DNA from: a virus
DNA: 64,000 bases
Direction: 5' to 3' (one strand)
Virus record (IMG/VR): IMGVR_UViG_3300030329_005813
Coordinates: 108,362-172,361 of that record
Shown: piece after piece, positions 51,423-63,932 of the stretch
Layout: the number at the start of each line of letters is the position of its first letter
Position numbering within the stretch: the stretch's first letter is position 1
Program-made: the position numbers and the translations under genes
The notes under the pieces: generated by a model
Told to the model about the DNA's origin: nothing
Seen by the model: the letters and a program-made list of their open reading frames with translations, nothing else
Databases searched by the model: none

Positions 51423-51713
51423 TCACATTTCTTTTAATTTACTGTCGATCATATTCTCAATAAAGCTTAGTTTTTCTTTTATTCTTCCTAAACCATTCTC
51501 TTTAATGCTAACTAAATCTTCTCGCTTTATATCTTCGCTCATTCTTAAGGAATCTTCTAAATCATTTAGGTCATCCCAAGTAACTTGAATTTTTTGATCA
51601 AAAACACCTGTTCTTTGTTGGACAATTCTTGCATTTATTTGATCTTTAGGCGATAAAGTGACAGTCATTTCCTGTAAAATCATATCGCGAAGAATATTTT
51701 TGGTAATTTTCAT
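51423..51713 (-). CDS. Hypothetical protein with MKITK-type leader
   Basis: MKITKNILRDMILQE; ACTATTTA motif and GGAG SD upstream. Confidence 0.7.
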   Translation of the reverse strand: MKITKNILRDMILQEMTVTLSPKDQINARIVQQRTGVFDQKIQVTWDDLNDLEDSLRMSEDIKREDLVSIKENGLGRIKEKLSFIENMIDSKLKEM

Positions 51714-51758
51714 ATGTTAAAGCTCCAAAAAAATATTAATTTTACTTATAAATAGTTT

Positions 51759-52160
51759 TTACGGCGCTAAACTGCAAGGAATTATATCTGATAATGCGCT
51801 TAGCGCTCCCATTGAGGCCTCCACTGAGTATTGATTGTCCTGATTAACAAAAACTTCTAAAATAACATCGTAGTCAGATACATAATAACCTAAATCAATT
51901 CTTTCAAACCTGCTAAGCTCACGTATTTCTAATGTATCTTCATCGTAGTAATATATAATTCCACCATTTTCAATAAAAATATCAGTTTCCGAGTCAAAAA
52001 AGTAACATAATGGCACATCAGAAACCAATAAAGGAGGAAAATCTAGTATTTCCCACCAAATATTTTCAAATTCTATTTTTAATTCTTCTTCTTCTAAAAT
52101 TTCTCCCTGTGAACAAGAACACAACATAAGAAAACTTACAATTAATAAGCTTTTTAACAT
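51759..52160 (-). CDS. Putative lipoprotein
   Basis: Signal peptide with a lipobox-like LCSC. Confidence 0.6.
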   Translation of the reverse strand: MLKSLLIVSFLMLCSCSQGEILEEEELKIEFENIWWEILDFPPLLVSDVPLCYFFDSETDIFIENGGIIYYYDEDTLEIRELSRFERIDLGYYVSDYDVILEVFVNQDNQYSVEASMGALSALSDIIPCSLAP

Positions 52161-52195
52161 TTTAAACCCCCCATATGGGGGATAAATTTACAAGA

Positions 52196-52429
52196 TTACG
52201 TTAGCCCGTAGTATTTTAAAATATAGTGTTTTATAGTCTCGGCCCCTGGGTACCTAGATTCACATACTTTAAACATATAGTCTGCCGAAACAATATACAT
52301 TGTTCCGAACGGCGCGTCACTTATCCCAACACCAATTGAAGTTCTACCCACGCCACAGTCTCCAGGTTTATGTATGGCACCTTTTTTGGGCGTTCCTACA
52401 ATATATAAAAAATAATTGGGCTCTTGCAA
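52196..52429 (-). CDS. Hypothetical protein
   Basis: TTG start with a GGGGA SD. Confidence 0.55.
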   Translation of the reverse strand: MQEPNYFLYIVGTPKKGAIHKPGDCGVGRTSIGVGISDAPFGTMYIVSADYMFKVCESRYPGAETIKHYILKYYGLT

Positions 52430-52533
52430 ACTATAAATCCCCCTATTATTAACTAGGCCTCGACAACTGAAAGGAAAGTTTAAAATAATTATACTATTTA
52501 CTTACAGAGAGGTGAACTAGGGGGTATTAAATA

Positions 52534-53598
52534 GTGCATTATATAAAATTTTGTTTTCTTTGGGCTTCGTTGCTGTCGGTAGTATCATGTGTAGAGTATT
52601 CTATCACTCAGCCAAATGTAATAAAAGGCGAAGCAAACCCCCCGGATGTTAAAATACAAGTAGAAAAAGACACTATAACACAAATAGCAAAATTTAAAAC
52701 TGATATTTTATGGGTTATTGATAATTCTTGTTCGATGAGCGAAGAGCAAACTGCCTTAACAAACAACTTTGATTCTTTTATCAACTACTTTATTGGCTCT
52801 GGATTAGACTGGCACGTCGGTGTTGTATCAACGGATATGCTACACCCTGATCAACAAGGAAGACTTCGCTCGTCTTTGGGATACAACTTTATTGACGAAA
52901 ATACTCCACAACCAACTTTAATATTTCGACAAATGGCGGCTATGGGAGTATCCGGATCAGGAGTTGAAAAAGGTTTAGCTACGAGCTATAATGCAATAGA
53001 GGTTCACGGAGAGGATGCAAATAAAGATTTTTATCGTGAAGATGCCTTACTGTCAATAATTGTTATATCAGACGAACCAGATTTCTCAACTGAAATTACT
53101 ATAGAAGAATACATTTCTTGGTTGCAAAATTTAAAAGATGATCCAGAAGATGTTATTTTTTCATCGATTGTGTGTTTACAGGAAGGGTATTTAAATGGAA
53201 TACGTTGTGATAACCCACCAGCCTGGACAGCACCTTTAGTTGGAAAACAATACATTGAAGTAACTAATGTTATTGGTGGAGCTTTATGGGATATTCGCGA
53301 AAACAACTGGGATGAAGTTCTGGACGAGTTAGGGTTTTTAACTTCTGGTCTTAAGAAAGAATTTTTCTTGTCTGATATTCCTGTTTTAGAAACTTTAGAC
53401 GTCTATGTTCAAGAGCCAGAGGGCAATACATATGAATTTAAGTTAGATTTAGATTACACTTATTCTAGAGTTAGAAATAGCATTACATTTATATCATATA
53501 CTCCTCCACAGTATTCAAAAGTTAATATTGAATATATACCTTTAGAGTCTTTTTATGGCGATATCAGCTTCGAAGATACAGACACTAGTTTAGAATAA
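52534..53598 (+). CDS. vWA-domain lipoprotein
   Basis: Lipobox VVSC, MIDAS motif DILWVIDNSCSM, VGVVSTD, IIVISDEPD. Confidence 0.85.
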   Translation: MHYIKFCFLWASLLSVVSCVEYSITQPNVIKGEANPPDVKIQVEKDTITQIAKFKTDILWVIDNSCSMSEEQTALTNNFDSFINYFIGSGLDWHVGVVSTDMLHPDQQGRLRSSLGYNFIDENTPQPTLIFRQMAAMGVSGSGVEKGLATSYNAIEVHGEDANKDFYREDALLSIIVISDEPDFSTEITIEEYISWLQNLKDDPEDVIFSSIVCLQEGYLNGIRCDNPPAWTAPLVGKQYIEVTNVIGGALWDIRENNWDEVLDELGFLTSGLKKEFFLSDIPVLETLDVYVQEPEGNTYEFKLDLDYTYSRVRNSITFISYTPPQYSKVNIEYIPLESFYGDISFEDTDTSLE

Positions 53599-62602: not shown

Positions 62603-62663
62603 TCAAGACCCTTCCGAGTTCTTCCTTGATGATCTGTTTCAGTTGTGATTTGGAGATTTTCAT
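62586..62663 (-). CDS. Leader-only minigene, 25 aa (absent from ORF track)
   Basis: MKISKSQLKQIIKEELGRVLNEAYT* with an AAGGAG SD and ACTATTTA motif; overlaps the next gene out of frame. Confidence 0.6.
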   Translation of the reverse strand: MKISKSQLKQIIKEELGRVLNEAYT

Positions 62664-62764
62664 AACAAGATCTCCTTGCTTATAAATAGTATCACAGAAA
62701 AGATAAAGATTCTAGAATTTTTTTTCTATATTTTTTTCACCAAGCCCCTTTAAAAGGCCCAATG

Positions 62765-62998
62765 CTAGCCACCTTTTTGCTCAAGCAAACCTTGACTTAC
62801 CAACCATTCCTCTTCAAAGTCCGCAACAGTGGCACCACCCAGGTATGCAACCCGAGCTTTTTCTTTAAATTCTTTAGGATCATAGCCATCATTTTTAAGG
62901 CCTTCAAAAGCTTCCAAATGCCACTCTTCAAAGGTGGAGTTGGACTTATCCTTTTCTTCAGTCAAATACTGACGCCAATTTTCAAGTAGGAGTTTCAT
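62765..62998 (-). CDS. Small acidic protein with an ENW leader
   Basis: MKLLLENWRQYLTEE. Confidence 0.75.
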   Translation of the reverse strand: MKLLLENWRQYLTEEKDKSNSTFEEWHLEAFEGLKNDGYDPKEFKEKARVAYLGGATVADFEEEWLVSQGLLEQKGG

Positions 62999-63343
62999 TT
63001 ATATGTCCTCCTGCTCTACCGAGATAAATTGCGGATCGATTTTCGACATAGATGTTACTTCAAAGCCAGCAGCAGAACTATCAACTTCACCCACACCGCG
63101 AGGATCAACTTTTAACAAAGTTAATTTTTCTTCTTCACCAAACCTATCTCCAAGCCAATTCATAAGAGCGTCTTCGGCGTCTGTGACGCTTTTAAATAAA
63201 TAAACACCTTCAACATCTTGCATATCATCGGGCTTTGATGGTAGCAAACCATCTTTCATAATAAGTGGAATGTTTTCTGAGCGTGTAATGTGATAATAAC
63301 TCTCGTTCAAATACTTTCGCCAGTTTTCAAGTAGGAGTTTCAT
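62999..63343 (-). CDS. ENW-leader protein with an ADP-ribosyltransferase-like (KptA/Tpt1-like) domain
   Basis: YYHITRSENIPLIMKDGLLPS...GVYLF...LLKVD...E...IDPQFI. Confidence 0.55.
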   Translation of the reverse strand: MKLLLENWRKYLNESYYHITRSENIPLIMKDGLLPSKPDDMQDVEGVYLFKSVTDAEDALMNWLGDRFGEEEKLTLLKVDPRGVGEVDSSAAGFEVTSMSKIDPQFISVEQEDI

Positions 63344-63702
63344 GTTTCTGTCTCCAAGTATTCTGTTGGTGCATAAACTTTACTGTTGCCATAAAACTCG
63401 CCATCGGCATCATACGCTGTGTCATAAATTCTTTCTTCTATACCACCGTATTTATCAAACTGTGCGACAGATGGATCTATTACTTTGCCATCATCCATCA
63501 TAATCCAAGTATGCTCGGTTGGATACTGATCATCACTGCCTTTAGTCCAAATGTACCCCTCTATAACTTTGAAATCTTCGATGCCATCAGAAAGAAGTTT
63601 TTTGACTATCTCTTCGGCGGCGGTGATACATACACCATCTTGTTCACAATCAACCTCTAAATCACTAAGGTATTCTCGCCAATTTTCAAGTAGGAGCTTC
63701 AT
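63340..63702 (-). CDS. ENW-leader protein with a transglutaminase/papain-like Cys-His-Asp domain
   Basis: GVCITAA, VIEG, EHTWI, VIDPS..QF. Confidence 0.55.
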   Translation of the reverse strand: MKLLLENWREYLSDLEVDCEQDGVCITAAEEIVKKLLSDGIEDFKVIEGYIWTKGSDDQYPTEHTWIMMDDGKVIDPSVAQFDKYGGIEERIYDTAYDADGEFYGNSKVYAPTEYLETET

Positions 63703-63932
63703 CTTTTAAGTGACTCCTCAACCGCGTTAACGAGAGAATCGAATATTTCTATTACATTTAGTGGTATTTCCGATTGATTTCCATAGATTTCCCCCAACAT
63801 ATCAGCAACCTCACCCTCAAAGGTGGTAACCGTAAGCATATCCTCTTCAGACACTTTCGGCACAGAAGGAAAAGGAACAACTTCCCCTTCCAATAACTTG
63901 CGCCAACCTTCCATAATCTTTTCCATAGCCAT
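63699..63932 (-). CDS. Small acidic protein with an ENW-like leader
   Basis: MAMEKIMEGWRKLLE; GAGG SD and ACTATTTA motif upstream. Confidence 0.7.
   Translation of the reverse strand: MAMEKIMEGWRKLLEGEVVPFPSVPKVSEEDMLTVTTFEGEVADMLGEIYGNQSEIPLNVIEIFDSLVNAVEESLKR

Follow-up and report, generated by a model that had tools for sequence, protein, structure and literature searches.

Two short N-terminal leaders, here called A and B, precede unrelated protein bodies in the genome of an uncultured marine T4-like phage, and probably act as the capsid-targeting propeptides of its lineage: by analogy with phage T4, each leader would be removed by the gp21 head protease, the bodies would be set free in the head and some of them would be ejected. 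The leaders were studied in the window, i.e. the whole 64,000-nt stretch of DNA analysed, which corresponds to positions 108,362 to 172,361 of the record IMGVR_UViG_3300030329_005813 and forms the final 64 kb of a linear viral contig of 172,361 bp, 95% complete. The sequence of this genome is represented in marine and estuary metagenomes, and none of the RNA datasets listed carries the region. Between window positions 51423 and 63932, 12 open reading frames (ORFs), all on the minus strand and designated here by their start position, bear one of the two leaders, one of the 12 being a leader alone.

An earlier note on this DNA had proposed at least 12 such ORFs, and all of these could be verified. 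Five of the seven starts that it assigned to leader B are canonical (63702, 63343, 62998, 62602 and 57282) and two divergent (63932 and 56667), while four of its A starts are canonical (62663, 61690, 61271 and 58099) and the fifth, 51713, is divergent, scoring 20.5 bits with a broad matrix. With matrices whose seeds were taken from the window, the canonical leaders reach 31–48 bits, whereas the highest value in shuffled proteomes is about 15. Conservation collapses after approximately residue 16–22 in A and residue 14 in B, which agrees with the abrupt end of similarity described before. As for the claim of an array, a tagged block is indeed present, but it is interrupted by untagged genes (fatty-acid hydroxylase, DUF2490, SNase, DUF6356 and plus-strand genes), and about 8 of the approximately 20 tagged genes of the genome, all with unrelated bodies, stand outside it, two of them between the portal gene and gp21, the tagged genes being distributed over at least five loci. 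Additional leader copies, which are rare, occur inside 58099, near residue 161, and at the C-terminus of 56667. Pfam and PHROGs searches gave no family for either leader, and a comparison of the A and B profiles was not significant (probability 9%). The ORF at 49699, listed earlier as a weaker B member, was rejected, as it is not scored as B and has an L-x-E only; it shows a weak cytidylyltransferase-like match, and a neighbour's probable homologue has DUF6267. Two further proteins are possibly divergent members, both preceded by the upstream motif described below: an HExxH protein with an A-like helix at its C-terminus (window 50277–51137) and a protein of 263 aa in which two A-like helices lie close to the N-terminus (window 46756–47547).

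The same design recurs in other viral genomes. Among the matches listed, 316 viral loci, partly fetched by means of leader DNA patterns on viral contigs, gave 494 A and 297 B matches at ≥18 bits, compared with 0 A and 1 B in reversed sequence. A total of 745 distinct proteins (468 A and 277 B) begin with a leader, and in 17 cases the copy lies inside a protein or at its C-terminus, several of these proteins also being led by one; in whole genomes retrieved via gp23, strong matches were almost all N-terminal too. The 720 bodies fall into 456 families, of which 366 are singletons and 11 carry both tags, with direct A/B swaps between bodies up to 67% identical. The leaders can thus be called modular and interchangeable, as had been suggested. 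A membrane-like segment is found in just 18 of 710 bodies. Immutovirus, a cultured Flavobacterium phage, carries A-like leaders, in vB_FspM_immuto_2-6A on genes 176, 177 and 191. The leader models gave no match on T4 and only weak A-like matches on the Microcystis phage Mel-JY01. Other recurring N-terminal leaders were observed in the clade, such as an FDLKKFL type in Immutovirus (L376:3807-4355, 17632-18932), and IDPRYF (19 starts) and TDEQIL (16 starts) in viral contigs (L128, L153, L184, L254).

The protease expected by the earlier note is present within a head module of T4 type. In fact, the genome encodes gp23 (E 2e-61), with a gp22-like scaffold gene before it, an intact gp21-family protease (E 2e-29), and putative portal and tail genes. 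The His, Ser and Asp of this gp21 line up with H85, S140 and D168 of the T4 enzyme, which we take to be its catalytic residues. T4-like sites are found in the phage's own gp23, and in the N-termini of the clade the [LI]-x-E sites are kept in 78–82 of 82 gp23 sequences. The nearest cultured capsids, at 49% identity, are those of Flavobacterium Immutovirus and Mel-JY01.

In T4, gp21 cleaves after L/I-X-E, and residues 4 and 7 of the capsid-targeting sequence (CTS) serve for targeting, residues 8 and 10 for cutting (PMC9026906); the ipII/ipIII leader has aromatics at 4 and 7, Ile 8 and Glu 10. Leader B reproduces this register as aromatic-x-x-aromatic-[LI]-x-E in 194 of 277 proteins, and leader A has an aliphatic version of it in 449 of 468. 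The leader ends in [LI]-x-E in 75% of B and 94% of A, a second such site following directly behind the A leader in 255 of 468 proteins, versus 46 of 443 further in. As in the T4 internal proteins IPI, IPII, IPIII and Alt (PMC9026906, PMC12373910, PMC5694885), one leader stands before unrelated bodies; T4's three internal proteins have just a leader in common, and each blocks a different restriction enzyme (PMC12373910). The likeness extends to the hydrophobic-x-x-hydrophobic-[LI]-x-E register, the gp21/gp22/gp23 head module, the polymorphic cargo loci and cargo of ADP-ribosyltransferase (ART) type. However, a ten-residue sequence with aromatics at 4 and 7 was not found, the tags here being longer (14 aa in B, 16–22 in A) and A aliphatic; some homologues have B variants of 10–11 aa. 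Moreover, there are approximately 20 tagged genes per genome here versus 3–4 in T4, with hundreds of body families, and leader copies are also internal or C-terminal in polyproteins, in a system known from sequence alone. The ejection proteins of phiKZ and SPN3US (PMC5694885, PMC9026906) are likewise large head cargo processed by a gp21-related protease cleaving after Glu, but their propeptides are mostly long and the phiKZ cut motif is S/A-X-E, while the phage described here has a gp23 of T4 type.

Both leaders also resemble helices encoded in the head-gene cluster, leader A weakly. The T4 gp23 propeptide, i.e. the N-terminal 65 residues, is removed by gp21 and thought to touch the core (PMC9546572); its first helix has a hydrophobic pattern around Trp like that of leader B, although in B a fixed Glu-Asn precedes the Trp and the cut site forms the end, whereas the gp23 helix is followed by about 50 further propeptide residues. 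When 52,605 windows were ranked by a matrix built from 7 outgroup gp23 propeptide helices, the leader of 63932 came first and the best 11 included five B leaders; in 4 of 11 proteins the gp23 helix was the best B-matrix window. This likeness may reflect either descent or convergence. In the case of leader A, a conserved 137-aa gene directly after gp21 (L001:17491-17904, genome 83490–83903) begins with an A-like N-terminal helix bearing an invariant Glu, a start seen in 41 aligned relatives and nearly collinear where a short insertion is absent; the gene has no Pfam family and is a candidate prohead core protein. A bolder proposal, which we advance as a tentative one, is that helices of head assembly gave rise to the tags, B coming from the gp23 propeptide and A from a conserved core protein, and that the tags load cargo as peptides and, as DNA, serve as crossovers of a lineage-wide library of hundreds of injected-enzyme cassettes, whose content changes even between nearly identical strains. 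A matrix of the scaffold C-terminus matched solely the scaffold itself in this genome. Elsewhere, an Immutovirus gene (L376:11676-12140) starts with the motif that ends the scaffold protein of the clade, and a gene of G000 (L003:15898-16518) with a looser form of it, possibly a third tag derived from a head protein. The predicted complex of two scaffold copies and leader B scored 0.00, which is evidence neither way.

The exchange of cargo at leader DNA, missed by the earlier note, became apparent from sister strains (L413, L416), which are 97–99% identical to the window in common blocks and differ from it at four sites in 6 kb, each of the four differences breaking in leader DNA. First, the sister lacks 63932, 63702 and 63343, and the promoter plus first two codons are fused to the leader of 62998. 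Second, it has three A-tagged genes at 62663, where the window has a leader followed by the 62602 start via a 7-nt microhomology; because of these three genes and this junction, 62663 is most simply explained as a deletion scar. At 61690 and 58099, the leader is retained over 22–23 codons and another body follows (in 58099, replaced after codon 23). Contigs of other studies break at 61623 and 58031 as well, and the 62995/63924 joint was found in three runs. In more distant relatives, the shared sequence runs from the start codon of the ART or protease gene up to and including the leader of the following gene, after which the sequences diverge. Counted over all loci, which are not independent, homology blocks end 30–59 nt into the gene at a rate of 16.6 per 100 A genes and 4.0 in B, compared with 1.2 in untagged genes. 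Since the sister differences all break in leader DNA, the leaders also double as exchange points, and the breakpoints would be produced by homologous recombination through this DNA. In addition, a segment between two of the variable cassette sites (window 58096–60616) holds an untagged fatty-acid hydroxylase, a membrane protein, DUF2490 and SNase, and is 98.5% identical in the sister. Immediately upstream of the B operon, one sister strain has an HNH endonuclease gene (L413:45-647) and the other a different HNH-like ORF (L416:1-474); the HNH gene could promote exchange there.

Regarding expression, several of these genes had been said to follow a common upstream motif, and a 17-nt block was indeed found before 63932, 62663 and 61690, with three exact copies in the window and 0 expected. 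These putative late promoter or ribosome-binding-site blocks, all on the minus strand, lie at 63940–63956, where the block heads a four-gene B operon, at 62675–62691 and at 61704–61720. With CTATTTA or CTAATTA as its core, the motif was counted 44 times on the coding strand, as opposed to 3 times on the opposite one. The coding-strand motif is the reverse complement of the T4 late promoter, TATAAATA having 29 copies genome-wide on the non-coding strand and a single one on the coding strand, and it may be a lineage-specific late promoter. Motif-headed operons hold 16 of 20 tagged genes; in hand-picked sets, the count is 17 of 25 for structural genes and 2 of 24 for genes of replication or metabolism. 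Tagged genes differ from all other genes in the operon-level test (p 4e-6); direct motif-to-gene association was not significant (5/20 vs 22/194, p 0.15). At the level of operons, the tagged genes resemble the structural ones, and they may be expressed late.

The cargo of the block, all of it encoded on the minus strand, is diverse. The first gene, 63932 (63699–63932), joins a divergent B leader, the one most like the gp23 propeptide helix, to a 77-aa body. Next, 63702 (63340–63702) has a B leader and a papain/transglutaminase-like domain with Cys25, His64 and Asp76, a triad invariant in 12 homologues; Pfam gave Tox-PLDMTX at E 8e-5, below the cut-off, and the best fold match to the predicted structure was LapG (Z 6.9, rmsd 2.9, 93 aligned), with the top rows coming from the transglutaminase-like clan. 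In 63343 (62999–63343), the B leader precedes an ART fold with conserved His18, Tyr48 and Glu95, the best row being KptA/Tpt1 (Z 8.2, rmsd 3.1, 89 aligned, VIA-align) in a list mostly of ARTs; a Foldseek search with the model gave no match at E 0.001, the ART call being based on weaker rows and VIA-align. In T4, Alt is an ART. The ART assignment of 63343 is confirmed at the level of fold and motif in the predicted model, and the transglutaminase-like one of 63702 is more tentative. Because residues 1–13 of 63343 have a predicted local distance difference test score (pLDDT) below 50 and leaderless homologues exist, its leader lies outside the folded domain; in general, homologues without a leader or with a different one argue against the leader being integral to each domain. 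Of the cargo types named earlier, the ART-like and Cys/metal-binding ones stand at fold or motif level and the transglutaminase-like one is probable, but the supposed ligase-like member, 49699, has neither tag.

The remaining genes are mostly without recognizable function, as Pfam and PHROGs gave no match for most window cargo, and searches for close relatives of 62602 and 59094 found none. A B leader with a 77-aa acidic body makes up 62998 (62765–62998), retained in the sister and joined there directly to the 63932 promoter and start, and 62663 (62586–62663) is the bare A leader, 25 aa with no body, overlapping the 62602 start out of frame. In 62602 (61892–62602; 236 aa, no Pfam family), the B leader is followed by a Gly/Ala-rich segment and a domain. 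Two A genes have bodies of 140 aa (61690; 61268–61690; body changed after codon 22 in sister strains) and 131 aa (61271; 60876–61271; a different A-tagged gene at this place in sister strains). Behind its A leader, 58099 (57284–58099) consists of basic Cys-rich modules in a row, together with an internal A-like leader and L-x-E at the junctions. Its last module shares 67% identity with a protein that stands alone in Kyanoviridae phage C48C1 and opens with ten residues in T4 CTS format; among 120 homologues of this module, most have an A-type leader and a few a B-type one, with [LI]-x-E ahead of the module in 109 of 112. Depending on the phage, this module stands behind A, behind B or behind a T4-format CTS. 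The B leader of 57282 (56839–57282), whose start was confirmed by the sister strain, precedes a Cys-rich domain like that of high potential iron-sulfur proteins, as which seven phage homologues are annotated (best E 6e-26). An 816-aa protein, 56667 (54217–56667), has a divergent N-terminal B and a strong C-terminal B copy; members of its family begin with canonical B or other leaders, and it gave no match to annotated phages. Within this gene, 105 nt (window 56247–56353) are replaced in frame by 15 nt in three runs and in the sister (786 aa). Finally, 51713 (51423–51713) has a divergent A leader, a 96-aa body and its own upstream motif. In the clade, a minority of 148 representatives have GNAT, NUDIX, nucleotidase, kinase, ParB-like or phosphoesterase domains (Pfam, PHROGs).

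The mechanism proposed would begin with late transcription of the tagged genes. Each leader would be a short amphipathic helix docking on the prohead core, in the way assumed for the T4 CTS and the gp23 propeptide. Once the shell has closed, a protease of gp21 type would cut after the terminal [LI]-x-E and release the body inside the head, a step modelled on T4 and on the sites that gp23 of this phage conserves. Among the bodies, folded ones (ART, Cys protease/transglutaminase, NUDIX, GNAT, kinase and phosphatase types) would leave the head together with the DNA and be active at once in the host, and small acidic or basic ones may remain as core or DNA-associated peptides, the fate of the bodies being the least certain step. 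A role of the bodies in anti-defence or early host takeover, as proposed by the earlier note, is likewise hypothetical. Furthermore, the 40–70 nt of leader DNA repeated before every cargo gene would offer a crossover point, at which cargo genes could be gained, lost or replaced in frame with a ready-made tag.

Several observations weigh against this proposal. A T4 CTS matrix does not rank the A and B leaders, and because it misses them, they are better regarded as a design in common with the T4 CTS in a different sequence family. The motif [LI]-x-E is common in acidic proteins. In the reverse test, gp23 helices scored –11 to +5 bits on the B matrix, and the phage's own gp23 helix has a 2-residue insertion; the match of leader A to the profile of the post-gp21 gene covers 9 columns with a probability of 36%. 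The late role of the motif is one that we infer, the motif was not seen directly before gp22/gp23, and the structural and replication/metabolic sets were chosen by hand. Logos and counts from the 316 loci are biased toward the seeds because of the fetching by leader pattern. Likewise, the 148 representatives matched 18 Pfam families, many of them overlapping, and few bodies fit any family.

Among the other explanations, the one which survives best, although we consider it rather unlikely, is that the tags do address the prohead core, but that most tagged proteins, above all those with A, are core filler or size modulators like gp67/gp68, degraded or retained in the head, and not host effectors. 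T4 gp67 and gp68 are small, acidic and encoded between portal and gp21, near which position two A genes stand here, with no sequence similarity shown and with the conserved A-like gene following gp21; that gene is conserved as a core gene would be. In addition, the A proteins are small, with a median length of 110 aa, most of them being net acidic, and 17 A-tagged ORFs have fewer than 45 aa. Nevertheless, B bodies are longer (median 195 aa), several with enzyme folds or catalytic residues, and quick replacement between 98%-identical strains suits an arms race better than a structural role. It is quite unlikely that the leaders are docking helices for a target outside the head, such as a host or phage machine, a chaperone, the tail or a protease (as a degron). 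Short amphipathic helices are generic, and internal and C-terminal copies exist, but T4 Alt is likewise cut at both ends (PMC5694885), both leaders end in a head-protease motif and resemble head propeptides, and one cargo has the T4 CTS format elsewhere. Moreover, the B pattern occurs just 8 times in 596 Gb of prokaryote genomes, in all cases in metagenome bins and mostly on short contigs.

A purely DNA-level role, in which the repeat would be a translation start and recombination anchor and the peptide incidental, is in accordance with the breakpoints in leader DNA and with a codon sharing of 0.63 within a locus versus 0.54–0.55 between loci. It is highly improbable, however, since key residues are 96–98% fixed while their codons agree in just 54–63%, which indicates selection on the peptide, and conservation tracks helical periodicity, with internal copies in frame. 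Lastly, recognition tags for a modifying enzyme, as in ribosomally synthesized and post-translationally modified peptides, are hardly credible in spite of the large glycosylation cluster of the genome, as there is no radical-SAM gene (PF04055) in the 95%-complete genome (controls 14/14), the tagged genes lie in at least five loci without a constant enzyme neighbour, and B has no conserved modifiable residue.

Other features of the genome and its relatives were also observed. A large sugar-nucleotide and glycosyltransferase cluster (window 26432–39974) adjoins tail and baseplate genes. Outside the window, at genome positions 43222–44545, there is a run of small ORFs, several with a common C-terminal E-S-E-E peptide, apparently a second cassette array joined via a DNA repeat. 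B-leader genes are found within bacterial metagenome bins (L388, L390, L393), one of them a 2.8-Mb WOR-3 chromosome record; these are possibly misbinned or integrated phage DNA, and a possible lead to the host.

The literature searched, with few subscription journals covered, gave nothing relevant on these motifs or such a system, and neither a virion proteome of Immutovirus nor a paper naming the CTS binding site was found. The present analysis adds the breakpoints seen in sister strains, the resemblance of leader B to a gp23 helix, the change to a T4-format CTS across lineages, and a test system in culture. The comparison of sister strains shows the mode of cargo exchange, the resemblance between leader B and the helix of the gp23 propeptide suggests, in testable form, what a CTS binds, and a cultured Flavobacterium phage with A-like leaders makes testing practical. 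If the tags work like those of T4, a search with two motifs would bring up candidates for injected proteins by the hundred, including ART, protease, NUDIX and acetyltransferase types, in a widespread uncultured lineage. Should the tags prove to be borrowed and the cargo exchanged as cassettes, they would provide a search key for day-zero anti-defence proteins in an abundant lineage of aquatic phages.

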